DNA of 32,000 nt from an uncultured Actinomycetota bacterium (GTDB lineage Bacteria; Actinomycetota; Actinomycetes; Mycobacteriales; Mycobacteriaceae): contig CAWFDM010000020.1 of the NCBI GenBank assembly GCA_963814505.1, positions 228,993 to 260,992 of the forward strand, read 5' to 3'. This document shows positions 5,774 through 27,784 of the stretch, in pieces (position 1 is the first letter of the stretch; each line of letters starts with the position of its first letter). The position numbers were made by a program, and so were the translations under genes. Under the pieces are notes generated by a model. The model saw only the letters and a list, made by a program, of their open reading frames with translations. It made no database searches and was not told the origin of the DNA.

Positions 5774-5825
5774 CGCAGGCCCAGCGAAGGCCACCCATTC
5801 GAACGGGCAAACCCCGCCCGGCAGC

Positions 5826-7951: not shown

Positions 7952-8573
7952 CCACGGCCCAGATGATTACGTGTCCGCGACCTCAGCCGCTCACCGGTTG
8001 GGGGTGTCGACACCTACGTTGCGCCGATACACCCAGGAAGGTCGGCTGCCGGATGCGCGCAGTGCGGGCGGGAGGCGGATCTTGCGGATCGGCGACTTGG
8101 ATGCTATCGCACCTAAACCATCCGCTGGCAAGGCAGTTGGGTATGCACGGGTGTCGTCACGGAGGCAACAAGCTGAAGGTGACCTTGATCGTCAGGTGGC
8201 CCGGCTAAAGGACCGTGACGGTGAGCTAGTCGTGTTCACCGACGTTGCTTCCGGCCTGTGGGACCGCCGCGTGGGGCTGCGGAAAGCGTTGGGTGAGTGC
8301 ATGAAACCGGGTGTGGATCGGCTGTTGGTGGAGCATCCGGACAGGTTGGCCCGGTTTGGTGTCGGGGTGATCGAACATCTGCTGGCGGGCTATGGGGTGA
8401 AGGTCATCTATACCGGCCAGCCGGAGGATGAGTCGGCGGAATCGGAGTTGGTGCGCGACATGCTGGCTATCGTGACCAGCTTTTCCGGGCGGCTGTATGG
8501 GCAGCGGTCGGCGAAGACGAAACGGTTGCGTGCGGCGGTGTCGGCCGAAACCGAATGCGGTGATGCCGCATGA
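7944..8573 (+). CDS. tnpA: IS607-family serine recombinase/transposase TnpA (MerR-like HTH + resolvase catalytic domain)
   Basis: The N-terminal HTH is 'SAAHRLGVSTPTLRRYTQEGRL'. The catalytic-serine block is 'VGYARVSSRRQ', followed by 'LLVEHPDRLARFG'. The stop overlaps the next ATG (ATGA at 8570-8573). Confidence 0.85.
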   Translation: MADHGPDDYVSATSAAHRLGVSTPTLRRYTQEGRLPDARSAGGRRILRIGDLDAIAPKPSAGKAVGYARVSSRRQQAEGDLDRQVARLKDRDGELVVFTDVASGLWDRRVGLRKALGECMKPGVDRLLVEHPDRLARFGVGVIEHLLAGYGVKVIYTGQPEDESAESELVRDMLAIVTSFSGRLYGQRSAKTKRLRAAVSAETECGDAA

Positions 8574-10271
8574 ACAACCAGGAATTGCGTGAGTGGCGTG
8601 GGGTGAAGCCGGTGGCCGCACCGTGCGGGGTAGCGATCAGTGCGCGGTTGCGTACCACCGCGGCCGATGAACCGGTGCTGGACGCGGTGGCCGCACATTT
8701 CGGACGGCTGCGCCGTGCCGACCTCACAGCGGTATGCCGTCTCGAACCAATTAGCTGCTGATCTGAGTCCTGATGAACGTCGACAGGTGCGCCGGGCTCG
8801 GCTTAACGCCCGTAAGAAGGCGTTGACCGCACAATCCTCGGCGCGGTGGGCCAATGCGATCATCACCGGCAACGATGACCAGTACCGGTTGTCCCGTGAC
8901 GCCCAGTACCGCCACATCGTAGGGTTGCGGGCGGCGATCACCACTATCGCGAAACGCCTGGCAGCCCCCACCACCGACACGCTCACAGCCAGTGAGCGCA
9001 AGGCCCGCCGAAAAGCCAAAGTAGCCCAAGGCTATGCGACTCAGCGCGAACGTTTCGCCAAGCAACAACGTCTACAGCAACTGCGTAGTGAGCTCGCCCG
9101 CGTGGAGGCTGATCGATCCGCACACCGGGTCCATGTGGTCGAGGGCGGGAAACGGCTCGCCCACACCCGCCACCACCTCGACGCCGCTGGTCTGACCACC
9201 GATGAGTGGCGTGAGAAGTGGGGGGCGTCGCGCTACCGCATCACCGCGAACGGTTCCCCCGACGAACCGTTCGGCAACCTCACGATCACCGTCACCCCGT
9301 CTGGCGAGGTGAGTCTGCGCCTGCCGAAACCGTTGGAACACCTGGCCAATGCCACCCGTGGCCGCTACGTGCTGTCGTGTCCAGCGGTGTTCACACATCG
9401 CGGGCACGAGTGGGTGCAACGGATCAGCGGCGGAAATTCGGTGTCCTACACCATTACCCACAAACCAGGGCGTTCCGGGCGATATCTCATCGCGGCGTGG
9501 GCGATCCCCGCGGTGCCATATTGGGTGGGCCGCGGCGACACAGCGGCTGGAGACGATGTCTATTCCACGGGCCCAGTGGTGGGAGTGGATCTCAACGACG
9601 GGCACCTGGCGGTGCGCCGGCTGGACGGTCATGGCAACCCCACTGGTCGTGCTGTGCGCATCGATATCGACCTCACTGGCAGCGCGTCACGCCGCGACGC
9701 TCAGGTGCGCCACGCCATCGCCCAGCTGATCGGTTACGCGCAGCAGTTGGGTATCGCTGCGATCGCGGTGGAAGACCTCGACTTCGCCGACGCCCGCACC
9801 GTCGGCCGTGAAACGATGGGCCGCGGCGCGCGTGGGAAACGGTTCCGCCGCACCGTGTCCGGCATGCCCACCGCCGTGTTCCGCAATCGACTAGCTGGCA
9901 TGTGCCACCGCGCGGGTATTGCCGTGTTCGCGGTCAATCCCGCCTACACCAGCACCTGGGGTGCGCAGCATTGGCAGCACCCCTATGAAAACGTCACCCG
10001 ACACCAGGCAGCAGCCACGGTGATCGGGCGTCGCGCCCAAGGCTTTAAGGCCCGGCGACGGAAAGGTGTGACACGCACGCGACCAGAGGATCGCGCCGTG
10101 AGAGCTACCAACCAGACCGGACCCGACAGCCCAACGGTGAACACCAGTAGCCGCCACCGGCCAGGGACACGGGGAACTAAATCCTGCGCACCCAACCGGG
10201 CAAGAATGCGACTACCGGGCCGGGCAACCGTTACCCCGGCAATGGCCAACAACGGCCAACTACGTTTGTAA
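8570..10271 (+). pseudogene. tnpB: TnpB-related IS607 accessory protein, interrupted by a frameshift near 8700-8760
   Basis: ATG 8570 is ATGA-coupled to tnpA and reads 'GVAISARLRTTAADEPVLDAVAAHFGRLRRADL' before stopping at 8761. The rest of the protein ('LSPDERRQVRRARLNARKKALT...GVDLNDGHLAV...IAVEDLDF...NPAYTSTWG..TRHQAAATVIGRRA') lies in another frame (track ORF 8640..10271). The total span of 1702 nt is not a multiple of 3. Confidence 0.75.
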
Positions 10272-10335
10272 CGGTTACCAACCCGCCGTTTGATGTGAGG
10301 GTCGGGAGCAGGGGCTTTGAACCCCGCCAATGCGG

Positions 10336-10379
10336 GGAAGTGCAGTATTCGGTTACTGGAAGTGCAGTAGACGATTACT
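10336..10379 (+). repeat. Tandem 22-bp repeat x2 (GGAAGTGCAGTAKWCGRTTACT) at the head of a conserved PE-gene leader
   Basis: 10336-10357 'ggaagtgcagtattcggttact' and 10358-10379 'ggaagtgcagtagacgattact'. The same tandem occurs in perfect form, inverted, at 14995-15038. Confidence 0.8.
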
Positions 10380-10479
10380 TAGTGCCGCGCCGCAGCGCCG
10401 CCAGACAATAAAGCTGTTCGCACGGGTGGAGGACCGCCGGGCTAGTGACAACCAGGGGCTTGCTGGTAGGTGGACGGAC

Positions 10480-10620
10480 ATGTCGTATGTGATCGCGGCG
10501 CCGCTTATGGATTTTGCGTGGTTGCCGCCCCAGATTAACTCGGCACGGATCTATGCGGGTGCGGGGACGGGGCCGCTGTTTATCGCGGCGTCGGGGGGGG
10601 TGGTGCGAGTCCGCATGTGA
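10480..10620 (+). pseudogene. PE/PPE deletion remnant: 8 PE codons fused in frame to a truncated PPE N-terminus
   Basis: The translation is 'MSYVIAAP' (PE start) + 'LMDFAWLPPQINSARIYAGAGTGPLFIAAS' (PPE N-terminal motif) + 'GGVVRVRM*'. A G8 run lies at 10593-10600, at the second junction. Confidence 0.7.
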
Positions 10621-14304: not shown

Positions 14305-14889
14305 TCAAGGAATGAGCGAACCCAACAGCTGAGCCAACAGCTGAGGGAGGACGCTTATCGAGATCCCAATTTCAACTAATGGAACGAATACGAAGAAAAA
14401 TGCAAAAAAAATGGCTACACCTATCAACGGAAGCAGCGGAGCCAACAAGCTTGTTAACCAATTTGCTAACATATTCTGAAAACCTGTCAACAAAGTGCTT
14501 AGCTGGCCCACGGCGGCGTTGAACAAGTTGACCAACTGGTCCCAGACGGCGCCGATACCGCTGCCAATCGAGCCGGCACTCGCAGCCAAGGGCTGCAACA
14601 GCGAGGCGTTGGCGGCCTCAGCGTGGGCAAACGAGCCCGCACTGGCAGTCAAGTGCTGCACAAACTGGTCCTGAAACGCCGCCGCGCGCCCGGCCAGCGC
14701 CTGATACTCCTGGGCGTGCGCCGAGAACAGGTGGGCGATACTGGCCGACACCTCATCGGCGGCCGCGGGCGGCACCGCGACGGTCCGGGCGGCCGCCACC
14801 GCGTGGGCGGCGCTGAGGTTCGAGCCGATGGTTGCCAAATCCGTTGCCGTCGAAGTCATTATCTCCGGCGCCGCGATCAGATACGACAT
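14305..14889 (-). CDS. PE family protein with C-terminal hydrophobic (TM-like) AT-rich tail
   Basis: The PE domain is 'MSYLIAAPEIMTSTATDLATIGSNLSAAHAVAAA...DEVSASIAHLFSAHAQEYQ'. The tail 'LLPLIGVAIFFAFFFVFVPLVEIGISISVLP' is encoded by atypically AT-rich codons at about 14355-14480. Confidence 0.85.
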   Translation of the reverse strand: MSYLIAAPEIMTSTATDLATIGSNLSAAHAVAAARTVAVPPAAADEVSASIAHLFSAHAQEYQALAGRAAAFQDQFVQHLTASAGSFAHAEAANASLLQPLAASAGSIGSGIGAVWDQLVNLFNAAVGQLSTLLTGFQNMLANWLTSLLAPLLPLIGVAIFFAFFFVFVPLVEIGISISVLPQLLAQLLGSLIP

Positions 14890-14994
14890 GTCCGTCCACC
14901 TCCTGGCAAGCCCCTGTTTGTCACGAGCCCCGGCGGTCCTCCACCCGTCAGAACAGGTTGGCTTATTGTCTGGCGGCGCTGCAGCGCGGCATTC

Positions 14995-15038
14995 AGTAAC
15001 CGACTACTGCACTTCCAGTAACCGACTACTGCACTTCC
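14995..15038 (-). repeat. Perfect tandem 22-bp repeat x2 upstream of the PE gene (inverted copy of 10336-10379)
   Basis: 'agtaaccgactactgcacttcc' occurs twice on the + strand (14995-15016 and 15017-15038). This is the reverse complement of GGAAGTGCAGTAGTCGGTTACT x2. Confidence 0.85.
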
Positions 15039-15126
15039 TCGCCACGCGGTGGGTAGCTTGCGTGGTCAGTCAACACCGCCACCACCTCCTCGCCGAGCGA
15101 CTCCCCCCCGCGGCGGGGGCCGCACG

Positions 15127-15155
15127 GTTTAGGACGCGCACAGCGCGTCCTAAAC
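15127..15155. repeat. Perfect 13-bp-arm palindrome (possible bidirectional terminator or protein site)
   Basis: gtttaggacgcgc (15127-15139), loop aca, gcgcgtcctaaac (15143-15155). Confidence 0.4.
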
Positions 15156-15398
15156 GAGTCTTGCATCCCTGTGCCAATCTGCCGTGCAGAAATCATGAGC
15201 CCGGGGCGTCTGAGCGATTATTAGTGAGATACCTTGTGGGGCTGCGGTTTTAGATGATACGGGAAGCAATGGAGTGGGACGATTGAAGATAAAGATTGTG
15301 AGAATGAGCAGAAATTAGGGGATCTGGGCGGTGAACACGGCAAGGCGCCGGTCGGTGAGGCCGGCCGCGGCAGCGCAGCGGCCGATTTCGCATGGGGC

Positions 15399-15686
15399 TC
15401 AGGCGATGCGTTCGATCGTGGCGAGTTTCGAGCCGATGTGCTCACGGGCGGTTTCGGCGTCGTAGTGAGTCTGCATGTTAATGAAGAACATGTCGCTCAA
15501 CCCTAGTGCGCGCGAGAGCCGCAGTGCGGTGTCGGCGCTGATGCCGCGCTTGCCGTGCACGATTTCGTTGATGCGACGAGGCGGTACGTCGATCGTCTTG
15601 GCGATCCGGTACTGCGAGATGCCGAGCGGGTCGAGGAATTCGGTCTTGAGGATCTCGCCGGGGTGGGTAGGTGCGAAGTCTGCCAT
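15399..15686 (-). CDS. higA: HigA-family HTH antitoxin
   Basis: ATG 15686. The 95-aa product reads 'MADFAPTHPGEILKTEFLDPLGISQYRIAKTIDVPPRRINEIVHGKRGISADTALRLSRALG', which is the HigA/XRE signature. GAAAGAG lies upstream. Confidence 0.85.
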   Translation of the reverse strand: MADFAPTHPGEILKTEFLDPLGISQYRIAKTIDVPPRRINEIVHGKRGISADTALRLSRALGLSDMFFINMQTHYDAETAREHIGSKLATIERIA

Positions 15687-15700
15687 GGGATTTCTCTTTC

Positions 15701-15981
15701 CTAGTGATTGTCGACGATTTCGACGTTGCCGGCGCCGTGCGCAGTCCAGGTAAAGCAGATGCGCCACTGGTCGTTGACGCGGCCGCCGTATTGGCCTGCG
15801 CGGCTCCCGGTCAGCTTCTCTAGTCGGTTGCCCGTGGGCACCCGTAGGTCGTTGATGCTCGCGGCGGCGTTGATGAGAACGAGCTTGTTGTATGCGAGCC
15901 TGCTGAGTTCCGGGCTGAGGTTCTTGATGTAGCGGCGCTGCCAGATCGCCTCGGTGTCTTGTCCCGGAACGAGCGGATCAC
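15701..15981 (-). pseudogene. higB: HigB (RelE-fold) toxin, inactivated by a 1-nt frameshift after codon ~8
   Basis: GTG 15981 reads 'VIRSFRDK' and then leaves the frame. The adjacent frame gives 'DTEAIWQRRYIKNLSPELSRLAYNKLVLINAAASINDLRVPTGNRLEKLTGSRAGQYGGRVNDQWRICFTWTAHGAGNVEIVDNH*', ending at 15701. The 281-nt span is not a multiple of 3. No in-frame start rescues the C-terminal part. Confidence 0.75.
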
Positions 15982-16068
15982 TCGGAAGTAGTCCCGGGGC
16001 GAATTACAGTGCACGTCAAAGTTGTCGTCAAGCGGCTCTGAGTAGCCTGCCGAAATCTGAGTTTTCCC

Positions 16069-16113
16069 TGGTGGAGCTAAGGGGACTCGAACCCCTGCCC
16101 CCCACACTGCCAG
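16069..16113 (-). other. 3' half of tRNA-Ala(GGC) (anticodon loop to CCA), att-site-like remnant, copy 1
   Basis: The minus strand reads ctggcag-tgtgg-ggggc-agggg-ttcgagt-cccct-tagctcc-a-cca. This gives a canonical loop C-U-GGC-A-G, a T arm, and the Ala-type acceptor 3' strand (U70 opposite G3). The 5' half is absent: the upstream bases cannot pair with the anticodon or acceptor stems. Confidence 0.6.
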
Positions 16114-16185
16114 AAGCGGGCAGGGTGCCGACCAGGCTCGATAGCAGGCAATTGGGTCTGTAGATGTCGACGTTCAGCGAGTAAC

Positions 16186-16217
16186 TGTCGTCACGGTTGT
16201 CGTCAGGGTTGCCGTCA
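16186..16217 (+). repeat. Three TGYCGTCA boxes at exact 12-bp phasing (arm-type-site-like), set 1
   Basis: TGTCGTCA at 16186, TGTCGTCA at 16198, TGCCGTCA at 16210. The set lies 73 nt from the tRNA-Ala remnant. Confidence 0.6.
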
Positions 16218-16298
16218 ACGGCTCGGATCAGTTCGGCGGAGACCGTGGTTTGTCGGCTGAGCTTCAATCAACTCCGTACAACGACAATCGGTCATCGA

Positions 16299-17957
16299 TC
16301 AGCCCTTTGTGGACACCGAGACGTAATCGACGAGCATCGGCTGCCCGGAAACCGTTGCGGCGGTTGGGCCACCGCCGAACGCGGCCGGGAAACCTCCGCC
16401 CATCGCCACATCCAAGATGATGAAGAAGCCGTGGTGGGTGGCGTTGTCCCAGGCGGCCGCGGGGACCTGGTTTTCGTTGACGGTGAAATAGTTGTTGCCG
16501 TCCAGGTAGTAGCGCAACTGCTCGACGCTCGTACTGCGGTCCAGTTCGACAGCGTAGGTGTGGAAACTCGTTCCGGCGCCCGCCACCGGGCGTTCGCCGG
16601 AGCCGATTCCGGTGGTCTCGTTGAACGGCCCGCCGGGGCTAGTGCCGCCGTGCACAGTGCCGAACACCGAACCGCGGCCGTTGATGTCCTCCATAATGTC
16701 CAGCTCGCCGATGCTTGGCCAGTTGGAGGCACCGACAGGCCGCGCCGCGTCACCGAGCGCCCAAAACGCCGGCCAGTAGCCACGCCCGTTGGTGGTGTCG
16801 ACGTTGGGCTGCTCAATCGACGCCTCGATGCGCAGCACCCCGCCGGGCGGCGCCTGGAAGTCTGTGCGCTGCGTCTCGATCCGGCCCGACGTCCAGTTGC
16901 CGGCGGCGTCTCTGATCGGCTTGATCGCAAGGTGGCCGTTGCCGTCGAGGTAGACGTTGCTGGTGCTGTTGGTCATCGACTCGATTTCGCCGGTGCCCCA
17001 GTTGCCCGCTCCGCCGGGATAGCCGTGGCCCAGATCGTATAGCCAGTTCGAGCCGTTGACCGGGGAGCCGGCGGGGCCCGTGAAGTCGTCACGCCAAATC
17101 GTGGTGAAGCCGGTATCACCAGTGGCCCCGGCAGCGCCGTTGGCGCCGTTGTTCCCGTTGACGCCCGCGTGACCGGCGCTCCCAAACAATCCGGCCGCGC
17201 CGCCCGCGCCTGCGACGCCCCCGGTGCCGCCCGTACCGCCGGCACCAACCACGCCTAAGCCGTTGGCTGGGCCCCCGACCCCACCAGTACCCCCGACCCC
17301 GCCGACACCGCCGGTCCCACCATTGCCGAACAACAGCCCGCCGTGACCGCCGACCCCACCCGCCCCGCCAGCGCCGCCGGTACCACCCATCTGACCCGCG
17401 GCGCCGGCCGCCCCGGTAACCCCAGTTCCCCCGACCCCACCAGTTCCGCCATTACCGAACAATCCCGCCGGCCCGCCGGCACCGCCGGTCTGTCCGGGCA
17501 ACCCAGATCCCCCATCACCACCGTTACCCCACAAAATCCCGCCCGGCCCCCCGGCTTGGCCGGTCCCCGGGACCCCGTTGGTGCCATTACCGATCAGCGG
17601 ACGCCCCAACAACGCGTTGCTGGGTGCATTGATCACGCCCACGACGTCCTGCTCGAGGGTCTGCAACGACGAGGCACCGGCGGCCTCCGCGGCCGCATAA
17701 GCGCCCGACCCCGCGTTGAGGGCCTGCACAAACTGCCGGTGAAACGTCGCGGCCTGCGCACTGATCACCTGAAAGGCCTGCCCATACCCGCCCCACAACG
17801 CCGCAATCGCCGCCGACACCTCATCCCCACCGGCCGCCAACAGCCGCGTCGTCGACACCCGCGCCGCCGCATTAGCCGCATCAATCACCGACCCCAACCC
17901 GACCAAATCCCCCGCCGCCGCCCCCACCGTCTCCGGGCCCACCACCACATACGCCAT
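16299..17957 (-). CDS. PE_PGRS protein with C-terminal GH16 beta-glucanase (laminarinase-like) domain
   Basis: 552 aa. The PE domain '[32 protein letters not shown]' is followed by a PGRS linker. The C-terminal domain carries 'WRDDFTG', 'GRIETQ', 'WPAFWALG' and the catalytic ExDxxE in '[11 protein letters not shown]'. Confidence 0.9.
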
Positions 17958-18153
17958 CAGACAGCTCCCCTGAACTCAGGACCACTCACCACCACCGCAA
18001 CACCGGCGGCGCCATCGCTGGCAAGACACAGCACACTTGCTCGCAGCCCCTCGGCCTTTTGCGCGCGCTGCACCCGTGTTACGAACGCGTCGGCGAAACC
18101 GGCTACGACGGCCATCATCCGAGCACCGTACCATACCTTTTGGTATGGTACGC
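17126..18153 (-). repeat. 1,028-bp direct duplication, copy A (PE-PGRS module + 196 bp upstream)
   Basis: Identical to 19987..21014 at an offset of 2861 bp, except for one substitution (17708 a vs 20569 c, Ser/Ala). Confidence 0.9.
18127..18152. promoter_or_regulatory. Perfect palindrome CGTACCATACC-TTTT-GGTATGGTACG (operator or terminator), copy A
   Basis: 11-bp arms with a 4-nt spacer. It lies 8 nt downstream of the TetR stop and 170 bp upstream of the PE_PGRS-GH16 start. An identical copy is at 20988-21013. Confidence 0.5.
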
Positions 18154-18159
18154 CGGTGT

Positions 18160-18726
18160 TTACGGCCGTAGCATGAAGTCGAGAAATCGTTCGCGCTGCA
18201 GCGGGGGCTGTTTCTTTGGCGTCGGACCGGATAGGTGCAGCAGTCCGATGCCGGCGGCGAACGTTGTAGCAGCCCTTAGTTCGGCCTCTTCGGCGTCAAA
18301 ACCGTAGTCGCAGAACGCCTGTCGCACGACCTTGAGCAGCCGGCGGTCGGCCGAGCGCACCGCGGCCGCGACGGTCTCATCGGAGTGGGCCCATTCGCGC
18401 ATCGCCCGCTCCAGCGTCCAGAGTCGCGGCCTGACTAGCGAAGCCATCATCTGTGACAGCCGCTCCCGCGGCGGAATGTCGCGCATCCGCTCGATATCGC
18501 GACGGTCTTCGTCACGCAAGTGCGCCCAGGATTCGACCAGCGCCCCGCGATAGGCCCCCATATCGGCGAAATGCCAGTAGAAGCTGCCCTTCGTCACGCC
18601 GAGGCATGCGCAGAGCCGATCGAGTTTGAGCGCATGTAGACCCCCCTCGGCCAGGATCGTGTAGCCGGCCTGCAGCCAATCGTCGACCGTCAGTCGAGCA
18701 TTTCCGGACGTGCGGCGGCTCGCCAT
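18160..18726 (-). CDS. TetR-family transcriptional regulator
   Basis: ATG 18726 was chosen as the start. The HTH is 'LHALKLDRLCACLGVTKGSFYWHFADMGAY'. The 188-aa length is typical. The track start at 18867 would overlap the upstream PE_PGRS gene. Confidence 0.85.
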   Translation of the reverse strand: MASRRTSGNARLTVDDWLQAGYTILAEGGLHALKLDRLCACLGVTKGSFYWHFADMGAYRGALVESWAHLRDEDRRDIERMRDIPPRERLSQMMASLVRPRLWTLERAMREWAHSDETVAAAVRSADRRLLKVVRQAFCDYGFDAEEAELRAATTFAAGIGLLHLSGPTPKKQPPLQRERFLDFMLRP

Positions 18727-18859
18727 GGTCCGCAGCCTACGGATCGTGGTCGAGCGGGCCGCGGTGAGGTGTTCGTAGGCGACGCCATAGAACGGCGCGG
18801 CGGCCTGCACCACCAGTAATGGCGATGAAGCCGGGATCGCCGCCCGGCTTAAGGACGCA

Positions 18860-20818
18860 TCAGTCAAGGTTGAATGACAGCTGAGTCGGGGGCTGGGAGT
18901 TGCTGAGGATCAGCACCGAACTCTGGCTGTTCACGTCGTCATAGGGGAAGCCGTAGGCCAGGTTGTTGATGCTGTCCTCGTGGAAGAACTCTGCGTAGTT
19001 GTTCCACCGCCCCCCCGCCGGATAGTAGGCGGCGACGTTGGCCCATTGATCCGACTCGGTCGCCACACCTCGGTTGAACGCCGCGTCGAGTTCGGCGAGA
19101 AACGCCCCTTGTGCGCCCGTGCCGACGAATGGGCCATCGGCGGCGAAGGTTTGCGCCGTTGTGGGCATCGTCATCGTGTACACCGAGGTGCTGCCCCCGG
19201 TGGGGGTCACGCTGTACACGAACTGGTCGCTGGCGTTGACGTTGCCGTGCACCGTGTAGCCGGGGCCGTTGTAGTTGAACTGGTTGGTTTGATAGGTCGT
19301 CCAGAAGTCATTGATCGGTGAATCAAGCCAGGTGGCCAGGGCTCCGGGCTGGACGGTCCGGGGGGACAAAATCCGCACCGGGCTGCCGTTGGCATCGTTG
19401 ACCATCAGTGACTGGAACGCGGACGGCTCCGTGGCCTTGAACTGCTGGAACACTTGGTCCCGCGACAGAGCCAGGCCACTGGTGCCCGAAAAGCCACTGG
19501 AGTTCTGTGTCACCGTGACTGAGAACGGGAACCCGAACTGGTCCACCTGTGTCGTGTTGCCGCCGAAGGGGACTGCGCCGTTTTTGAAGGTCATCTCATA
19601 CCAGTCGTAGACCGTGCTGTAATTCGGATCGGCAGGATTCGCTGGGTTAGGACCCGCCCAGCCCTTGTTGTCGGGGCTGATGGCGATATAGAGCGGCTGC
19701 TTCTCCGACAGGAATATCCGGGCCCCCTCAAGTTCGGGCGGCATCTGGAAGTTGCCCGCCTGGGCGAGAGTGAACGACATATCGGCGTAGTTCACGCCGT
19801 TCTTCGTGAGGTGGTCTGCGGCGTTGGCGGCGTCGTGGTCGATCGCGTGGGCCACGCCGTTCTGGTCGATCCAAGACCATTGGCCCGGTGTCGTCTGGCC
19901 GATTACAGTCACATAGACCTGGTTGTCGCTCAAACCGGTGTTGTTGGTGAAGACGAAGGTTCCGGTGGAGCCGGTGTGACCGGTGCCCCCGGCAGCGCCG
20001 TTGGCGCCGTTGTTCCCGTTGACGCCCGCGTGACCGGCGCTCCCAAACAATCCGGCCGCGCCGCCCGCGCCTGCGACGCCCCCGGTGCCGCCCGTACCGC
20101 CGGCACCAACCACGCCTAAGCCGTTGGCTGGGCCCCCGACCCCACCAGTACCCCCGACCCCGCCGACACCGCCGGTCCCACCATTGCCGAACAACAGCCC
20201 GCCGTGACCGCCGACCCCACCCGCCCCGCCAGCGCCGCCGGTACCACCCATCTGACCCGCGGCGCCGGCCGCCCCGGTAACCCCAGTTCCCCCGACCCCA
20301 CCAGTTCCGCCATTACCGAACAATCCCGCCGGCCCGCCGGCACCGCCGGTCTGTCCGGGCAACCCAGATCCCCCATCACCACCGTTACCCCACAAAATCC
20401 CGCCCGGCCCCCCGGCTTGGCCGGTCCCCGGGACCCCGTTGGTGCCATTACCGATCAGCGGACGCCCCAACAACGCGTTGCTGGGTGCATTGATCACGCC
20501 CACGACGTCCTGCTCGAGGGTCTGCAACGACGAGGCACCGGCGGCCTCCGCGGCCGCATAAGCGCCCGCCCCCGCGTTGAGGGCCTGCACAAACTGCCGG
20601 TGAAACGTCGCGGCCTGCGCACTGATCACCTGAAAGGCCTGCCCATACCCGCCCCACAACGCCGCAATCGCCGCCGACACCTCATCCCCACCGGCCGCCA
20701 ACAGCCGCGTCGTCGACACCCGCGCCGCCGCATTAGCCGCATCAATCACCGACCCCAACCCGACCAAATCCCCCGCCGCCGCCCCCACCGTCTCCGGGCC
20801 CACCACCACATACGCCAT
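18860..20818 (-). CDS. PE_PGRS protein with C-terminal GH64-like beta-1,3-glucanase domain
   Basis: 652 aa. The N-terminal ~285 aa are the same as in ORF 16299..17957. The C-terminal blocks '[17 protein letters not shown]', 'GARIFLS', '[23 protein letters not shown]', 'VRILSPR', 'INDFWTTY' and 'AYGFPYDDV' match the GH64 laminaripentaose-producing glucanase pattern as I recall it. Confidence 0.85.
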
Positions 20819-21014
20819 CAGACAGCTCCCCTGAACTCAGGACCACTCACCACCACCGCAACACCGGCGGCGCCATCGCTGGCAAGACACAGCACACTTG
20901 CTCGCAGCCCCTCGGCCTTTTGCGCGCGCTGCACCCGTGTTACGAACGCGTCGGCGAAACCGGCTACGACGGCCATCATCCGAGCACCGTACCATACCTT
21001 TTGGTATGGTACGC
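19987..21014 (-). repeat. 1,028-bp direct duplication, copy B
   Basis: See copy A (17126..18153). It includes the palindrome at 20988-21013. Confidence 0.9.
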
Positions 21015-21043
21015 GGGTTTTCACACTCCGCGATCGCCGTAAC

Positions 21044-22279
21044 CTATGTAGGTCCGGGCCTGCGGATAGCATCGACAAGTTCACCGGCACGCACTGCCAC
21101 GTTCGACAGCAAGGTGGACGCCAGGCCGTGCGTGTGCTCGACCGACCCGTTGAGGTAGATATCTCCCGGTGCCCCCCCTTTAGGGATCAGACGGTAATCC
21201 CGCGTGACGGCGGGACGTCCATCCAGGTCGAATTCGTAACAGCTGGCCAGGTCTCCCAGGAAACTTCGGATGTCCAGCGGCGCATAACCCGTTGCGTAAA
21301 TTACCGCATCGCAGTCCAGCGTCTCCTGCGAGCGGTTGGCCAGGTGGGAGATGATCAGCCGCACGCCGTCGGGAGATTCTTTTGTGTCACTGACTTCGGA
21401 AGCCTTGTGCGTGAACAGCCGTCGATCGCCGGAGACCCGCTCGGAATACTCGCGCGAGTAGAGTTCGTCGATCAGTTGGGGATCGACGGCTGAGTAATTG
21501 GTCGAGCGATGGTAATCGAGCAGTCGTTGCCGCAGCGGTTCGTCAGCGCCGTAGAAGTCGTCGACGGCCGACGGGTCGAAAATCCGGTTGGCGTAAGGAC
21601 TGTCGTCGGCCACGCTGTAACCATATCGAGTGAAGACCGCATGCACTTGGGCCTGCGGGTAAGTCTCATAGAGGTAGGCGACCACCTCGGCTGCGCTTTG
21701 ACCGGCACCGACGACAGCGAATCGCCTTGGCAAAGAAGAGTTTAGCGTGGCGAGACGATCGAGCAATGTGTGGCTATGCCACTGCCGGGCGCTTTCGATA
21801 ACGCCCGCCGGCAGCACGGGGTGCAGACCGGTACCCAAAACCAAGGCCCCTGCCTGTATCTCACATTCGGGTTCGGCCCGAACCGCAAAACCCGACTCGC
21901 CAGGAGTAACCCCGACAACACGGTGTCCGTAGCGCACGTCCGCATTCACCCGGGCGGCTGCCCACTCGAGATAGTCATGGAATTCCAGCCGGCCGGGAAA
22001 GAGAGTGTGCCGGCCGATGAACTCGACCAGCCGATCACGCTCGCTCAGATAATTCAGAAACGTAAACTCGCTCTTGACATTCCGCAATGTCACAAGGTCT
22101 TTGAGGAAGGGCACCTGCATGCGTGCGCCCGGAAGCAGCATGCCCCGGTGCCACCCGAACCGACGTTGAGTCTCCACGAACACGGCCTGCATACCGCGCT
22201 CAGCGAGCGCGATCGCCAACGCGAGATTCGACGGCCCAAACCCGACACCGAGCAGGTCGGTCCTGTCAGGAGTGGACAT
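21044..22279 (-). CDS. Lysine/ornithine N-monooxygenase (IucD/PvdA/SidA family flavoprotein)
   Basis: ATG 22279. The FAD motif is 'LLGVGFGPSNLALAIAL' and the NADPH motif is 'FAVVGAGQSAAE'. 'FTRYGYS' and 'DAVIYATGY' are also present. The start overlaps the upstream acyltransferase stop by 14 nt. Confidence 0.85.
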   Translation of the reverse strand: MSTPDRTDLLGVGFGPSNLALAIALAERGMQAVFVETQRRFGWHRGMLLPGARMQVPFLKDLVTLRNVKSEFTFLNYLSERDRLVEFIGRHTLFPGRLEFHDYLEWAAARVNADVRYGHRVVGVTPGESGFAVRAEPECEIQAGALVLGTGLHPVLPAGVIESARQWHSHTLLDRLATLNSSLPRRFAVVGAGQSAAEVVAYLYETYPQAQVHAVFTRYGYSVADDSPYANRIFDPSAVDDFYGADEPLRQRLLDYHRSTNYSAVDPQLIDELYSREYSERVSGDRRLFTHKASEVSDTKESPDGVRLIISHLANRSQETLDCDAVIYATGYAPLDIRSFLGDLASCYEFDLDGRPAVTRDYRLIPKGGAPGDIYLNGSVEHTHGLASTLLSNVAVRAGELVDAIRRPGPT

Positions 22280-23072
22280 GAGAACGAACCAACCGTTCGA
22301 GATAGCGTTCACGCACCATCGCCCGGTTGATCAAGACGACGAAATCCGCCATGTCGAAATCCCGATCGTAGGAGGGCTCTCCGCAGATCAACCCGCCGAT
22401 CCGCAGACAGCCCTGCACCATCGGCGGAATACGTACCCGCCCAGGGTCCGGCAATTCGGAGAGAGCTAATCCATTGACCTGAACCGGGTTTCGAGGTACC
22501 ACCCGGTATTGCGGGGGCGCGGGATGGGCGCCGAACGCCGCGTCGCGAACGCCGCGCACCAACGCGCCCCGCGCCCCGCCGCCTTCCATCCGGACCGACA
22601 GGCACCCGATTCCCCATTCGTAGCCGGTGATTTCCTGGTAGCGCAGGATCCCTGCCCACAGCAGCCCCATCACCGCGCCATTGCGGTGTGCCGCATGCAC
22701 GCTTACCCGGCCAATTTCGACGAGTTTGGGGCGCAACTGGTTTAGGCCGCCGATGTCGAAGATGGTGTCGGCGAACAGCCCTCCGGCGGCTTTGGCGCCC
22801 TCGGGTGGCAGCAGTCGGTAGCAGCCCACGATTTGGCCAGTGGTCTTGTCTCTCGCCAGCACGTGATCGCTGTGCGGATCGAACTGGTCGACATCGATCA
22901 TTTCGCCGGTCAGTGGTCCACGAACAGCTTGGGGCAGTGCCGCTCCCATTTCTTCGGCAAACGTCTGATAGCGCAACCGCTGGGCGGCTTCGATGTCGGC
23001 GGGGTCGGTGGAAATCATGACGCTGTAGCGACCGGTATCGGTCGCCGGAATCAGGGTCGCGTCACCCACCAT
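22266..23072 (-). CDS. OlsB/hemolysin-like GNAT N-acyltransferase (Acetyltransf_5-type)
   Basis: 'AQRLRYQTFAEEMGA', 'DVDQFDPHSDHVLARD', 'VGCYRLLPP', 'VEIGRVSVHAAHRNG..LLWAGILRY', 'PPMVQGCLRIGG' and 'DFDMADFVVL' follow the lyso-ornithine-lipid synthase / N-acyl amino acid synthase pattern. An alternative start is ATG 23018. Confidence 0.8.
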   Translation of the reverse strand: MVGDATLIPATDTGRYSVMISTDPADIEAAQRLRYQTFAEEMGAALPQAVRGPLTGEMIDVDQFDPHSDHVLARDKTTGQIVGCYRLLPPEGAKAAGGLFADTIFDIGGLNQLRPKLVEIGRVSVHAAHRNGAVMGLLWAGILRYQEITGYEWGIGCLSVRMEGGGARGALVRGVRDAAFGAHPAPPQYRVVPRNPVQVNGLALSELPDPGRVRIPPMVQGCLRIGGLICGEPSYDRDFDMADFVVLINRAMVRERYLERLVRSHVHS

Positions 23073-23176
23073 GCCGGAAGACTACCCAAACCTGCCTTCC
23101 GCGATGCGGGATTCGAGCGCGGTCCCCCGGTCCTGGACGTCGCGGGAACGCTACCGCTCCGCGGTTACCGACCGGA

Positions 23177-24727
23177 TCACTCGTCGACCGGAGCAAACTT
23201 GCGTTGGCGCGCGCCGATCGCGATGAGTATGGCCGTGCCCACCGCGGCGACGGTCGCGGCGATTGCGGCGGCCACCAGCGCGGCCTGCATTCCATCGGCG
23301 CTCGCCTGCCGGGCTACCCGCGCAATAGCCGGTAGCGCCGGCCGGAAGCCGGCCGGCAGGAAATCGAGTACCCGCAGACCAGCGCCCGCCGACAATCTGT
23401 CGATGAGTTGGTTCACCGGGCCTTGATCGACACCATGGAGTTTGGCGAGCCCCCCTCGGGCGCCGTCGCCCGCGTGCCGGCTGAACAGGGCACCCAGGCC
23501 GGCAACCCCGGCCAAAATGCCGACCTGACGAACCGTACTCACCGCGCCGGTCGCCATTCCGGCATCCGCGACCGGAACGAATTCCAGTGCGATGTCAGAC
23601 GTCAACGCGAACAGGCCACCCAGACCCAGACCGGCCACGATCGAACCACCGATGAAATGCGTCCATTGGATGCTTTCGGTCACCCCGGTCATCAGCCATA
23701 GGCCCGCCGCGATCAGCACTACCCCACCGGATATCGACATCCAGGCCGGGAAGTAGCGTGCGGCGGTCATGGCCAGCGGGGCGCCCAGCACGCACGCGAT
23801 GGTCAGCGGAAGGGCTCGCAGGCCGGCCTGAAATGGGCTGTATCCCAGGGTGTTCATGAAGTAGAGCGCCAGGTAGTTGGTCGAGGCGATCAGTGTCCCG
23901 GCCGCCGCGAAGGCCGCGAGCGATACCCCTGCGAATCCCGGTCGACGCACGACCCGCAGGTCGAGCATTGGGGCGGCCACGCGCGATTCCCACCAAACAA
24001 AAAACATCAGGGCTAGGGCGCAGAACGCGCCGAGCGCCAGGATCAGCGTGCTGGCCCAACCGAGGTGATTGCCTTCGATCAACACATACACACCCGCGAA
24101 CAGCGCAGCCGAGAGCGCGGCCGTGCCGAGCAGGTCGAGTGGGCGGTCTTGCGCGGCGCGGGTTTCCGGAACGAACCACACCGCGATCGCCAGAGCCGCC
24201 ACCCCGATCGGCACATTGATCAAGAAGATCGATTCCCAGCCGAAAGCTACGACCAGTGCTCCACCGAGCAACGGGCCGACAGCGGCACCCGCCCCCATCA
24301 CGGCGCCGTAGATCGCGATGGCTATGCCTCTGCTTCGCTGTTCTGGAAACGCCGCAGCCACCATCGGCAGTGAGACGCCGAGCAACACCGCTCCACCGGC
24401 ACCCTGCAGCGCCCGGCACGAGTTCAGCATCTCGATGCTGCCGGACAGTGCGCAGCCGGCCGAAGCGAGTGTGAATACCGTCATTCCGACCAGGTACAGA
24501 CGCCGCCGCCCAAGTCGGTCCCCCAAGGTGGCCGTCGTGAGCAGCAGCCCCGCCATGGGCAGCGCGTAGGCGTCCACCACCCACTGCAGTCCACTGAGTT
24601 CGGCGTCCAGGGATGCCTGAATGTTGGCAAGAGCGGCCGAGACGATGGTCATGTCGAGCAGCAGCATGAAGACCGCGAGGCAGACCGCCACCATGGTCAG
24701 GCGAGCGGTGGCCCGGGGGGAAACCAC
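23177..24727 (-). CDS. MFS transporter, DHA2 (EmrB/QacA, 14-TMS) type
   Basis: 516 aa. 'LDMTIVSAALANIQASL..LQWVVDAYAL' and 'GDRLGRRRLYLVGMTVF' are present. Many hydrophobic segments run along the whole length. Confidence 0.9.
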   Translation of the reverse strand: MVSPRATARLTMVAVCLAVFMLLLDMTIVSAALANIQASLDAELSGLQWVVDAYALPMAGLLLTTATLGDRLGRRRLYLVGMTVFTLASAGCALSGSIEMLNSCRALQGAGGAVLLGVSLPMVAAAFPEQRSRGIAIAIYGAVMGAGAAVGPLLGGALVVAFGWESIFLINVPIGVAALAIAVWFVPETRAAQDRPLDLLGTAALSAALFAGVYVLIEGNHLGWASTLILALGAFCALALMFFVWWESRVAAPMLDLRVVRRPGFAGVSLAAFAAAGTLIASTNYLALYFMNTLGYSPFQAGLRALPLTIACVLGAPLAMTAARYFPAWMSISGGVVLIAAGLWLMTGVTESIQWTHFIGGSIVAGLGLGGLFALTSDIALEFVPVADAGMATGAVSTVRQVGILAGVAGLGALFSRHAGDGARGGLAKLHGVDQGPVNQLIDRLSAGAGLRVLDFLPAGFRPALPAIARVARQASADGMQAALVAAAIAATVAAVGTAILIAIGARQRKFAPVDE

Positions 24728-24960
24728 CTAATCGGCCTTGATGCGGGTGAAACGATGCAACAGCCAAGCCAAGGGGATTGTCAGCACCAACGTCGCGACG
24801 AAGGGGTAAAGCATCGAGCCAGTTTAGACGTGGGCCCGGACGATGTAGACCATCGCGAATTCCATCGTCACCAGGTGGATCAGGAAGATCTCATAGGAGT
24901 TCTCGCCGAGTCACACGATCGGCCGGCTGCCCGCAACCGGGCATACAACCCCCGGGGGCG
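24728..24960 (-). pseudogene. Acyltransferase-3-family gene remnant (C-terminal fragment with nonsense/frameshift)
   Basis: The minus strand reads '...SRPIV*LGENSYEIFLIHLVTMEFAMVYIV', with TGA at 24911-24913 where the family usually has Trp in 'WLG.xSYxIYLxH'. A tail 'MLYPFVATLVLTIPLAWLLHRFTRIKAD*' follows in another frame. The upstream part is missing. Confidence 0.35.
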
Positions 24961-25112
24961 CCGGGGGCGCCGCCCAAGGCCAGCGGTGCCACCGCCAGTG
25001 CCTCGATCGCCGCATAGCAGCGCGTCTTGACCAACGCCTCGCTGAGCGTGGCCGGCGAGGTCGTGGGCGCGCCCTCGATCGGCGTGGAGCCTGCTGAGGT
25101 CTGAGTTTTCCC

Positions 25113-25157
25113 CGGCGGAGCTAAGGGGACTCGAACCCCTGACCCCCACACTGCCAG
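25113..25157 (-). other. 3' half of tRNA-Ala(GGC), att-site-like remnant, copy 2 (degenerate 3' end GCCG)
   Basis: The minus strand reads ctggcag-tgtgg-gggtc-agggg-ttcgagt-cccct-tagctcc-gccg. About 175 bp, including flanks, is homologous to copy 1 at roughly 80-85% identity. Confidence 0.55.
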
Positions 25158-25230
25158 GAGCGGGCAGGAGCCGCGGCCAGGCACGATAGCAGAGATTTCG
25201 GGCTGTAGATGTCGGTGCTCACGGAGTAAC

Positions 25231-25262
25231 TGTCGTCACGGTTGTCGTCAGAATTGTCGTCA
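25231..25262 (+). repeat. Three TGTCGTCA boxes at 12-bp phasing, set 2
   Basis: TGTCGTCA at 25231, 25243 and 25255. The set lies 74 nt from tRNA-Ala remnant 2. Confidence 0.6.
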
Positions 25263-25320
25263 ACGACCGACTGATGCTAAAGCCACGCAAAGGCCCCAGC
25301 CGGCGGGAACTCGTATCCGT

Positions 25321-25647
25321 TTGTATTACAATGAGCAAGTGGCGGACGACCGGTTCGATCCCGATCTGCTTGACGACGAGAACCCGTTCGAGATCGACGC
25401 CCAAGCCGCCCACCTGTTCAAGCACCCACGCCTGGGCATCGAGGACATCCGCGATGTCTGGGCATCCGACCCGATGTTCTATCCCGCCAAACCTCCCGCG
25501 CACTGGCTGATGGTCGCCGAAGTCGAGGGCACCGTTCTTATGGTGCCCCTCGCCCCCGCCCGCGACGGCAACCCAAAACGCTGTCGCCCCATCGGCTGCT
25601 ACCCCGCCTCCAAACATCTCTCTGACCAATACCGGAGTGACAGATGA
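25321..25647 (+). CDS. Putative BrnT-like (DUF497-like) toxin
   Basis: 108-aa ORF; the start could instead be GTG 25339. 'FEIDAQAAHLFKH..GIEDIRDVW..DP' ... 'GTVLMVPLAP' ... 'RCRPIGCYPASKHLSDQY' loosely follows the BrnT pattern FEWD..K...KHG...E....DP...G..L.V.....R.ISAR.A...E...Y. It is ATGA-coupled to the downstream RHH gene. Confidence 0.55.
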   Translation: MYYNEQVADDRFDPDLLDDENPFEIDAQAAHLFKHPRLGIEDIRDVWASDPMFYPAKPPAHWLMVAEVEGTVLMVPLAPARDGNPKRCRPIGCYPASKHLSDQYRSDR

Positions 25648-25865
25648 ACCAGCCAATGACCCCCGACGAGGAATACGAGTTCTACACACGCCCCGAAAAC
25701 CAGGAACCCCAAGGGCCCGGGCGACGCCGGCTAACAGCCACCGTTCCCGTGCGCTTCCCGCCCGAGCTGTTGGAGCAAGTACGCGCCGCGGCCGCCGCGG
25801 ACGACCGGTCCGTCTCCTCGTGGATTCGCCGCGCGGTCGAACACGAACTTCGCCATCCGGCTTAA
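25644..25865 (+). CDS. Ribbon-helix-helix antitoxin (BrnA/CopG-like)
   Basis: 73 aa. The C-terminal RHH is 'VPVRFPPELLEQVRAAAAADDRSVSSWIRRAVEHEL'. It overlaps the upstream stop. Confidence 0.7.
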   Translation: MNQPMTPDEEYEFYTRPENQEPQGPGRRRLTATVPVRFPPELLEQVRAAAAADDRSVSSWIRRAVEHELRHPA

Positions 25866-26048
25866 ATCTCGTAACCAACGAAGTACCGAGAGACGGCTCT
25901 CGGCGGTACCGGTTTCGAAGTCGTTGTCTGGTTATGCGGCAATGGATTTAGCCGAGATCATCCGGCAAGAACACAGCGTATCCGGCTGGTTCCCGATGAA
26001 TTTCGGCGAAATAACAGCGACTCCAGACCGGGATGCAAGGTCACCTCC

Positions 26049-27317
26049 TTGCGGTCTGGGACTGCGTTTCATCAAGATTGCTTTGTGACTGCCCTCGCGG
26101 ACGCCGTCCTGCCGCTGATCAGGACACGCGCCGAAGTGTGGTGGTGGAACGTCGCCGATGCGCACGGAGCCCGGATGCATGAGGCCGTTACGGCCTTACG
26201 CGAAGCCGCCGAAACCGAAAACCCGACCGTTGTGTTCGCCGTAACTCAGAAGGCGATCGCGTCGGCGCTTAGGGTAATCATGCGCGCCGATGACTCCAGC
26301 GGAATCATCGGTGACGCCTGCCGCGATCTGTTGGACCTTCACCCCCGGATGGCGGAAATAGCCCGTCCGGCCACCGCCCAGTTGGTCGACTGGATGATCA
26401 AATTCCAGTTCGAGAACGAATGTGACTACTTCACGATCGACCCGGTCGCGTACGCGCCAGCTCTTGGGGAGCTGGGCATCGCGAGGTACCGAGCGAAACT
26501 CGATGCGGTCGCAGCAAGTCTCGGCACCCGCCCATCGGACGATCAACGATGGACGGCGCCGCGCGCCGGTGATTGGCACACTCTCGACTGGAACGCGCAG
26601 CGCCTGGCCGTCCTCGATAGAGACGTTGACGCGATCATCCGCATCCATGCCCGAGACCGGCGGTTCGCGGTGTGGCATCAGGACACCGCCGAGGCCCTGG
26701 AGGAAATCGGCCAGATCGACCTCGCGATCGACTGGGCCAAGCAGGCAACCGATTTCGACTCCGGCCACCAGTCGCGGCGGGCCGCAAACTACTGGTGCGA
26801 ACTCCTCGCTAGGTATCGGCCCGACAACCTGCTGGCTGCTCGGGTGGAAGTATTCCGGCGCTGGCCATCGTCGACCACGGCCGCAGACGTCTATCAGGCG
26901 GCCGGCGCCGCGTGGCCTGACTACCGCGAAGACGTGTTCGCGCGCCTGGCACCAATGCCGCCGCGCGACACCGTGGTCTTTGCGCTGGCTCATCTCAAGG
27001 ACATCCCACTCGCCTGGAACGTCGCGCATACCCTTGGCCTCGATGACGACCGCACCTGGAGCGACGTCGCGAAGGCATACGAGAAATTCGACCCTCTCGC
27101 CGTACTGCCGGTACACACCGAGCTGGTGGAGCACGAGCTGGCCGAAGCCAGCGCCCAGCACTACCGAAGTGCCGCTCGACGGCTCAAGAAGATGCGCAAG
27201 CTCGCAGCTGGGTCGGATCGGGCTAACGAGGTCAATGAGCTGATCGCCAACCTTCGCCTTCGATACCACCGTCGGCCTCGACTCCAACTGGAGTTCGATC
27301 GCGCGGGGCTGCCCTAG
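26049..27317 (+). CDS. Large uncharacterised helical protein (start uncertain: 26049/26085/26178)
   Basis: 422-aa ORF with high GC3 and balanced composition. 'RADDSSGIIGDACRDLLDLH', 'DPVAYAPALGELGIARYRAKL' and the C-terminal 'YRSAARRLKKMRKLA...LRLRYHRRPRLQLEFDRAGL' recur in actinobacterial hypothetical proteins as I recall. No function is known to me. Confidence 0.7.
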   Translation: MRSGTAFHQDCFVTALADAVLPLIRTRAEVWWWNVADAHGARMHEAVTALREAAETENPTVVFAVTQKAIASALRVIMRADDSSGIIGDACRDLLDLHPRMAEIARPATAQLVDWMIKFQFENECDYFTIDPVAYAPALGELGIARYRAKLDAVAASLGTRPSDDQRWTAPRAGDWHTLDWNAQRLAVLDRDVDAIIRIHARDRRFAVWHQDTAEALEEIGQIDLAIDWAKQATDFDSGHQSRRAANYWCELLARYRPDNLLAARVEVFRRWPSSTTAADVYQAAGAAWPDYREDVFARLAPMPPRDTVVFALAHLKDIPLAWNVAHTLGLDDDRTWSDVAKAYEKFDPLAVLPVHTELVEHELAEASAQHYRSAARRLKKMRKLAAGSDRANEVNELIANLRLRYHRRPRLQLEFDRAGLP

Positions 27318-27369
27318 CCTAGCGCTTGAGGTATAAGTGGCTCGCATCATCGCCCTGCCGGCGGCTTGA

Positions 27370-27401
27370 CTGTCGTCAGGGTTGCCGTCACAACTGTCGG
27401 C
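27370..27401 (+). repeat. Three TGYCGKCA boxes at 12-bp phasing, set 3 (no adjacent tRNA remnant)
   Basis: TGTCGTCA at 27370, TGCCGTCA at 27382, TGTCGGCA at 27394. Two GTTTTCGACAA repeats follow at about 27434 and 27455. Confidence 0.5.
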
Positions 27402-27473
27402 AGAGCGCAACTGCCGCGATACAGCACTCGTCGTTTTCGACAAGCGGTGCTCGCTGTTTTCGACAACGTCGAT

Positions 27474-27784
27474 TTACCCGTTCCGACGACCGCGGCCGAT
27501 ACGAACATCCAGGGATGATCCCGGCAGAACGGGACCCATTTCCCCCTGGCCCAACACAGCGAACGCGATCACGACTCGACGCTTAAAGCCGATTGTGCGA
27601 AGGCCTGGCCTGATGTCATCACGTGCCCTGCCACGATGCGGGAACGGACCCAGATCGTCGCAGAACGCCACGATCGATTCCGCGTAGGCGCAGCTAGTTC
27701 CGCCGATGCTGCCGCCGCGATGTAGCGGTGCAGCTCAAGGAGTTGATCTTCTGCCTCAGGCGTGAAGACGACGCTGAGGCTCAC
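27474..27784 (-). pseudogene. parE: ParE toxin, frameshifted (~27686-27692)
   Basis: GTG 27784 is GTGA-coupled to the parD stop and reads 'MSLSVVFTPEAEDQLLELHRYIAAAASAELAA' before leaving the frame. The adjacent frame continues 'YAESIVAFCDDLGPFPHRGRARDDIRPGLRTIGFKRRVVIAFAV'. The 311-nt span is not a multiple of 3. Confidence 0.7.

Follow-up and report, generated by a model that had tools for sequence, protein, structure and literature searches.

What could have left two copies of half a tRNA gene, about 9 kb apart, in a stretch of mycobacterial DNA? The stretch in question, called here the window, comprises 32,000 nucleotides of contig CAWFDM010000020.1 from an uncultured Actinomycetota bacterium of the family Mycobacteriaceae. 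A preliminary description of the window had read two direct repeats as footprints of integrase-mediated insertion into a tRNA-Ala(GGC) gene, and the DNA between them as one of several decayed islands accreted in tandem at one tRNA. We propose that each repeat is probably an attachment (att) junction left by one family of tRNA-inserting elements, whose lambda-like tyrosine integrase is of the type found in pSAM2 and related integrative and conjugative elements of actinomycetes (AICEs). Insertion into the tRNA genes would proceed by crossover in the anticodon loop. As to mechanism (an integrase footprint, arm sites and decay), the earlier account largely holds. As to structure, it does not: the window contains no 9-kb island in a tandem array at one tRNA.

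A repeat search of the window pairs positions 16044–16124 with 25088–25168 at 91% identity and 16129–16220 with 25174–25265 at 84% identity. Together these blocks form a direct repeat of ~177 bp with an offset of 9,044–9,045 bp, close in position and length to the ~175-bp repeats described before. On the minus strand, each copy holds the 3′ half of a tRNA-Ala(GGC). Remnant 1 (16069–16113), at which ARAGORN calls no whole tRNA, runs from the CTGGCAG anticodon loop to CCA and would form the att core. Remnant 2 (25113–25157) covers the same half, with its 3′ end mutated to CCGCCG. The assignment to tRNA-Ala(GGC) holds. Positions 25117–25157 are identical at 41 of 41 positions to a Nocardia farcinica gene that ARAGORN calls tRNA-Ala(GGC), and 16014–16113 and 25103–25157 share 90% and 96% identity, respectively, with an intact mycobacterial tRNA-Ala(GGC) and its 3′ flank. 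For both remnants, the match to the intact tRNA ends exactly at the anticodon loop; repetition of a tRNA gene from that loop to its 3′ end is the form that an att junction takes. As had been noted, the window itself holds no intact tRNA by ARAGORN or Rfam, and no tyrosine integrase was found in it. Its genes likewise include none of the int, xis, repSA, FtsK/SpoIIIE-type or NUDIX genes of the pSAM2-type AICE module.

The repeats also carry a recurring octamer. The sequence TGTCGTCA occurs eight times in the window (16023, 16186, 16198, 25231, 25243, 25255, 27371 and 8152, the last unrelated to the repeat units), against 1.12 expected, and none of 100 shuffles reached eight. To the right of remnant 1, a conserved spacer of 72 nt (16114–16185, plus strand) separates the anticodon loop from array 1 (16186–16217, plus strand), which reads TGTCGTCA, TGTCGTCA and, at 16210–16217, TGCCGTCA in 12-bp phase. 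The spacer holds a block found family-wide, GACCAGGC(A/T)CGATA, and its length is constant in the family. To the right of remnant 2, a conserved spacer of 73 nt (25158–25230, plus strand) leads to array 2 (25231–25262, plus strand), with three exact copies of TGTCGTCA in the same phase. The preliminary description had thus recognized the arrays and their 12-bp phase, while the gaps and the third octamer of array 1 needed correction. It was also right that a third array lacks a tRNA piece, although this array lies at 27371–27402 (plus strand) and reads TGTCGTCA, TGCCGTCA, TGTCGGCA. A profile search with nhmmer matched it to just the array portion of the unit, the spacer and core being absent.

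What had been overlooked is a pair of octamers on the other side of remnant 1. It occupies 16011–16030 (plus strand) and consists of a degenerate GCACGTCA at 16011–16018 and an exact TGTCGTCA at 16023–16030, again in 12-bp phase. Between it and the tRNA end lies a 38-nt tRNA 3′ trailer (16031–16068, minus strand), which aligns with the trailer separating an intact tRNA-Ala(GGC) from octamers in two related loci, L188 and L083; in these, the homologous octamer pair overlaps the 3′ end of an integrase gene. We call this pair the proximal arm, here belonging to the element on the left, and the three-octamer array with its spacer the distal arm. Repeat 1 carries all parts of the unit, the proximal octamers included. 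Repeat 2 retains only 25 nt of its trailer (25088–25112, minus strand), and its proximal octamers are deleted.

We then asked how widely such units occur. Genome and metagenome collections were scanned for the exact octamer-array pattern, which yielded 42 loci from the genomes and at least 120 from the metagenomes. The genome loci come nearly all from Mycobacterium or from metagenome-assembled genomes (MAGs) of uncultured Actinomycetota; M. gastri, M. simiae and Nocardia higoensis are also represented. Among the matches listed, 163 arrays had enough flanking sequence for classification: 94 adjoin a tRNA-Arg(ACG) half, 50 a tRNA-Ala(GGC) half and 19 another half or none. One locus, L062, has a different tRNA-Ala-like half. 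Read in tRNA orientation, the unit starts with three TGACGACA octamers in 12-bp phase, followed by a spacer of ~73 nt with a block conserved in all classes, TATCGTGCCTGGTC. The tRNA 3′ half comes next, beginning exactly at the first base of the anticodon loop, and then a trailer of 40–60 nt, often a hairpin; one or two further TGACGACA octamers, oriented like the first three, close the unit. For the arrays listed, loop and first octamer are 72–74 nt apart in the Ala class; among the 94 Arg-class units, 81 have a distance of 74 nt.

The intact target that the window lacks is present in related loci. An intact tRNA is found neither at an end of the array in the window nor, as judged from a closely related strain (L067), in the ~6 kb past the right end. 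In L029, L034, L049, L116, L130 and L187, an intact tRNA-Arg(ACG) anchors the Arg-class arrays, and an intact tRNA-Ala is found in L188–L195. L049 equals L029 plus one extra 1-kb element directly beside the tRNA, as successive site-specific integration into a restored tRNA predicts. The cargo of these elements is small and variable and includes AbiEii/AbiEi-like and toxin-antitoxin (TA)-like pairs. A conserved 371-aa protein beside some arrays was considered as a recombinase and ruled out; it is the AbiEi-like partner of the AbiEii toxin and hence cargo.

Which enzyme would act at these sites? In the 42 genome loci (44 units), no integrase lies within the 8 kb covered, and the sole integrase-like match, in L046, is a short, unrelated C-terminal fragment. 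A scan for serine recombinases yielded, besides an IS607-like gene in the window, a single gene in L043; neither is linked to units. The true integrase family had escaped a tyrosine-recombinase regular expression, its motif reading RHSS, not GH, and was reached by tblastn with an integrase remnant from L074. It is among the metagenome loci that an integrase was found: in L083 and its near-identical counterparts L069, L147 and L156, a 10.2-kb element lies between two tRNA-Ala halves. At its proximal arm, two HTH_17 excisionase-like open reading frames (ORFs) precede a gene for a tyrosine integrase that contains one frameshift and one in-frame stop; the integrase reading frame extends through both proximal octamers. 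No integrase adjoins an att site in the window; the homologous unit of L083 has both int and xis.

At E ≤ 1e-30, a search with the repaired L083 integrase retrieved 1,721 homologues. Of those that are intact, P0001 is the closest, with 96% identity, and it also ends in two octamers. An intact, convergent tRNA-Ala(GGC) lies 38 nt past them, followed by DAO, MFS, PGM and CrcB genes. In M. marinum (GCA_028594445.1) and three other mycobacterial genomes, the homologues end a module of HD, NUDIX, HTH_3, FtsK_SpoIIIE, RepSA, HTH_17 and int, which is the gene set of pSAM2-type AICEs. The RepSA/FtsK_SpoIIIE modules have one or two octamers ~38–46 nt from the tRNA-Ala 3′ end, and pSAM2-type AICE genes occur around homologous integrases in L191–L195. 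Three loci have an integrase remnant next to the proximal arm: L074, L065 (of the Arg class) and L153, where an internal deletion joins integrase residues 1–65 to 374–398. Homologous units in relatives thus adjoin an int/xis pair and an intact tRNA-Ala(GGC), which agrees with the footprint of a tyrosine-integrase element proposed at the outset.

Two observations on the integrases and their surroundings may be added. An alignment of the homologues contains seven invariant cysteines (C135, C137, C138, C151, C152, C159 and C160 in P0001 numbering) in an insertion within the core-binding region, which may be a metal-binding module. Genes with AAA_23, MC2 and CTD6 domains separate the AICE integrase from the octamers with tRNA-Ala in L193–L195 (11395–13804), as TIR_2 and Hypoth_Ymh genes do in L191. 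The interval between int and att seems to be a hotspot for defence-like cargo.

Judged from sequence and a structural model, the octamers are most likely arm-type sites for the N-terminal domain of this integrase. They flank the core on both sides at fixed distances, regardless of cargo, and accompany one integrase family across three tRNA specificities. Arm-type sites would be arranged in this way, as several short repeats on both sides of a core, at fixed distance, together with a heterobivalent integrase; the earlier comparison of the octamers with such sites is in keeping with this. In the integrase model, residues 17–63 at the N-terminus are predicted to form three strands and a helix (pLDDT, the predicted local distance difference test score, of 70–85), and the best fold matches are full-length lambda integrase chains, the overall model being of moderate quality (mean pLDDT 63). 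An AICE offers a precedent. The attP identity segment of pACPL is flanked by 21-nt repeats, GTCACCCAGTTAGT(T/C)AC(C/T)CAG, that resemble the arm-type sites of pSAM2; Int binds those sites, and efficient recombination requires them (PMC3364876). These 21-nt repeats amount to two 9-mers 12 bp apart. A coding role for the octamers, as Asp-Asp repeats, was also considered and ruled out, the frames differing among copies and no usable start codon being present.

We propose that attP of these elements would carry the tRNA 3′ half as its core, between two arms. The distal arm, 5′ of the core, would consist of three TGACGACA octamers in 12-bp phase, separated from the loop by ~73 nt. The proximal arm, 3′ of the core, would have one or two octamers that lie ~40 nt past the tRNA end and overlap the integrase gene at its end. 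Integration would restore the tRNA and displace the old 3′ half. Repeated integration would stack elements, so that units of a core and both arms would come to separate successive elements. In the window, the element left of repeat 1 would have kept its proximal arm and higBA and lost int and xis by deletion. At repeat 2, an illegitimate deletion or rearrangement would have removed the proximal arm and fused the repeat to a truncated chromosomal acyltransferase gene, and array 3 would represent an arm without a core. The sites in the window appear as relics, which could act only with a family integrase supplied from elsewhere in the genome.

The comparison with L083 shows what the element left of repeat 1 has lost. 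Positions 15128–15984, containing higBA, match L083 4546–3690 at 83%, and 16014–16217 match L083 1756–1552 at 85%, whereas in place of the 1.9-kb int–xis block of L083 the window has ~30 bp. This element is therefore a deletion derivative that kept the proximal arm. Its cargo, higA (15399–15692) and a frameshifted higB (~15701–15983), both on the minus strand, sits where L083 has int and xis.

Repeat 2 has a different history, and here the reading of the 9-kb segment between the repeats as a clean island fails. If the DNA between them were an island, it should be missing from relatives with an empty site. The comparison with island-free relatives that the preliminary description had called for gave the opposite result: 21040–25088 (~4 kb, minus strand) is syntenic chromosome. 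M. decipiens (L196) and a related MAG (L197) match it at 81–83% DNA identity, share its gene order and have no units there. This ancestral block encodes a lysine/ornithine N-hydroxylase, a GNAT acetyltransferase, an MFS transporter and the 3′ 115 codons of an Acyl_transf_3 gene (24731–25088). In L196 and L197 the order is DeaD, Acyl_transf_3, MFS, GNAT, N-hydroxylase, SIP. The acyltransferase of the window consists of residues 266–380 only and ends exactly at 25088, the left edge of repeat 2. Placed as it is in the tRNA trailer, with 25 nt between it and the tRNA, this edge is not an anticodon-loop crossover but an illegitimate deletion or rearrangement junction.

The notion of decayed tandem islands at one tRNA therefore stands only in part. 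Decay is evident from the 1.9-kb int–xis loss relative to L083, and tandem accretion is seen at tRNA-Arg, in L049 compared with L029. The family is nevertheless dispersed over several tRNAs, and the locus is not the tRNA-Ala site of the relatives: their tRNA-Ala(GGC) adjoins PGM and CrcB, whereas the DNA to the right of the window, as seen in L067, holds DUF1254/DUF1214, acyl-CoA dehydrogenase, SDR and AraC genes.

Several points weigh against the att-junction reading as a whole. In the loci with an intact integrase (L188–L195), the distal three-octamer arm is absent from the 10 kb covered. Both arms occur together with the integrase only in L083 and its near-identical contigs, and the integrase there is a pseudogene. 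A Pfam search of the integrase N-terminus returned no significant arm-binding domain. Some single arrays combine Ala-type with Arg-type units (L027, 3639–6167; L088, 489–2245), a mixture that simple site-specific accretion at one tRNA does not predict. The exact octamer pattern used for collection makes octamer conservation partly an ascertainment effect. Finally, the context of tRNA-Ala(GGC) and integrase comes solely from the loci of relatives.

The most serious alternative is that the units are recombination sites of integrase-less mini-islands of 0.2–10 kb that are still mobilized in trans by an AICE integrase. Such islands, with TA, abortive-infection and other small cargo, would build cassette-like arrays next to tRNA-Arg(ACG) and tRNA-Ala(GGC) throughout Mycobacterium. 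We consider this possible, but doubtful. It would account for the 44 units of the 42 genome loci without an integrase within 8 kb, bar the short C-terminal fragment in L046, for elements of 0.2–5 kb with AbiEii/AbiEi or TA-like pairs, and for two units that stand back to back with almost no cargo in L040 (4165–4542). The additional 1-kb element beside the tRNA in L049 and a cargo block common to the window and L063, with different neighbours (25113–27360, 93% identical and beside a homologous unit in L063), point the same way. On the other hand, independent loss of int recurs (L153, L074, the window) and accounts for elements that lack an integrase, no mobility being required. Neither excised nor empty forms were seen, one unit in the window lacks an arm and another the core, and the search pattern biases how conserved the arms appear. 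It is very improbable that the remnants are ends of ordinary temperate phages of mycobacteria, such as M. abscessus prophiGD12-2 and prophiGD05-1, which make use of the tRNA-Ala 3′ end. The records of these two prophages do carry the same tRNA-Ala 3′ segment at the record end, with two matching places each, but the similarity is limited to 34–37 nt of tRNA. When phage and plasmid collections were searched with both unit types, matches were confined to the tRNA part, no phage record having the spacer or octamers, and tblastn of the genome loci with the prophage integrase found no relative. A scan of viral contigs with a degenerate octamer pattern returned mostly perfect coding repeats; of 2.9 million contigs, L007 alone carries a unit.

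The octamers could instead bind a protein other than the integrase: an excisionase, a nucleoid protein, a cargo regulator or, as iterons, a replication initiator. Several loci have cargo genes that start immediately downstream of the array, in L029 with 8 nt between the array and the longest-ORF start codon of the AbiEi-like gene, and the lack of a significant Pfam match to an arm-binding domain would fit as well. Yet the octamers persist at constant spacing from the core whatever the cargo, occur on both sides of it, overlap the integrase 3′ end and mostly belong to elements without RepSA, which makes such a role unlikely. Still harder to credit, and hardly to be entertained, is that the conserved spacer and tRNA 3′ half form a structured tRNA-like non-coding RNA. 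The block TATCGTGCCTGGTC, conserved in all classes, vaguely resembles a D-arm; the energy from RNAalifold is just −5.5 kcal/mol, good support is confined to the inherited T arm, a 5′ acceptor strand is missing, and neither Rfam nor ARAGORN returns a match. We therefore retain the att-junction reading as the probable one.

The single viral contig deserves a separate remark. L007 (IMG/VR, 5923 bp) carries an Arg-class unit at its end (5766–5923) and a phage capsid-like gene at 1229–2443. Some members of the family may accordingly be phage-like or satellite-like.

In several respects the family resembles pSAM2- and pACPL-type AICEs. Its relatives with an integrase have an adjacent excisionase beside the att site and carry RepSA, FtsK/SpoIIIE and NUDIX genes as pSAM2-type elements do; the att identity segment covers the tRNA 3′ end; and short repeats in 12-bp phase flank that segment, as in pACPL. 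Elements integrate in tandem at one tRNA with a short att site left between them. Tandem AICEs sharing one tRNA in this manner, AICE remnants in Mycobacterium and alternative att pairs have been described (PMC2440964, PMC3218068). The differences lie in the motif, TGTCGTCA rather than GTCACCCAG-type repeats, in the targets, tRNA-Ala(GGC) and tRNA-Arg(ACG) in mycobacteria, and in the window retaining no int, xis, rep or tra gene. In a 2011 survey, all but one of the mycobacterial AICEs used serine recombinases (PMC3218068). A literature search for the octamer sequence returned only primer matches.

The arrangement also recalls phage attachment sites. The attP of lambda, with arm sites P1, P2 and P′1–3, and likewise that of mycobacteriophage L5 have a core flanked by arm-type repeats. 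The family units share the core between multiple arm-type repeats and the three tandem repeats on one arm, and the predicted fold of the integrase is closest to full-length lambda Int. They differ in the crossover within the tRNA anticodon loop and in the sequence and spacing of the octamers. Integrase-less derivatives in tandem arrays are familiar from the cis-mobilizable elements (CIMEs) of streptococcal integrative and conjugative elements and from the cargo-only tycheposon arrays of Prochlorococcus. Like these, the present elements are bounded by att sites or partial tRNAs, lack their own integrase, stack at tRNAs and carry small adaptive cargo; the host group and the integrase family are different. 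Specific here are the TGTCGTCA motif, a mycobacterial tyrosine-integrase family that targets tRNA-Ala(GGC) and tRNA-Arg(ACG), and the many integrase-less mini-elements.

Turning to the remaining features of the window, the small element right of repeat 2 has its cargo at 25321–27317 (plus strand), with a 108-aa ORF, a 73-aa RHH/YlcI-like ORF and DUF6880. The cargo of the window as a whole includes the 108-aa/73-aa pair, higBA and a parDE-like pair. The toxin genes look frameshifted (higB, 15701–15983; parE-like, 27474–27784), and the antitoxins, higA and the parD-like gene, are intact. The homology between the window and L063 (93% over 2.2 kb) stops at the same base, window 27360 and L063 148. 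Past this point, unrelated sequence of 10 nt in the window and ~135 nt in L063 leads to a core-less octamer array.

Two PE_PGRS glycoside-hydrolase genes, a GH16-like gene (16299–17957) and a GH64 gene (18860–20818), share an identical 254-nt 5′ end and upstream region (17900–18153 and 20761–21014), part of a ~1-kb duplication (17103–18152 and 19964–21013). Upstream of both lies a perfect 26-bp palindrome, CGTACCATACCTTTTGGTATGGTACG (18127–18152 and 20988–21013), which may be an operator, since a TetR gene stands between the two. The IS607-like unit (7938–10271) combines an ORF for a serine recombinase with MerR-HTH and Resolvase domains (7938–8573), unlinked to the tRNA units, with a following 543-aa ORF (8640–10271) that has no clear Pfam match. 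An inverted repeat of ~170 nt, 91% complementary (10332–10503 and 14866–15042), brackets ricin-lectin, sulfatase and PE genes. The start of the PE gene at 14305–14889, with the region upstream of it, falls within the right arm, and a related ENA contig appears to end near this repeat.

The repeats of the window are thus fully explained, and the segment between them is not a transferable island. What the locus exemplifies is a widespread mycobacterial family, here as a well-explained relic rather than a new kind of system. The signature of a tRNA half, ~73 nt and three TGTCGTCA octamers provides a marker for element junctions and variable islets in mycobacterial genomes, and many elements found with it carry toxin-antitoxin or phage-defence genes. 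The integrase, paired with its candidate arm sites, could serve as an integration tool for tRNA-Ala or tRNA-Arg. If mobilization in trans were true, the mini-islands would parallel the cargo arrays of integrons or tycheposons, with a tRNA as their anchor.

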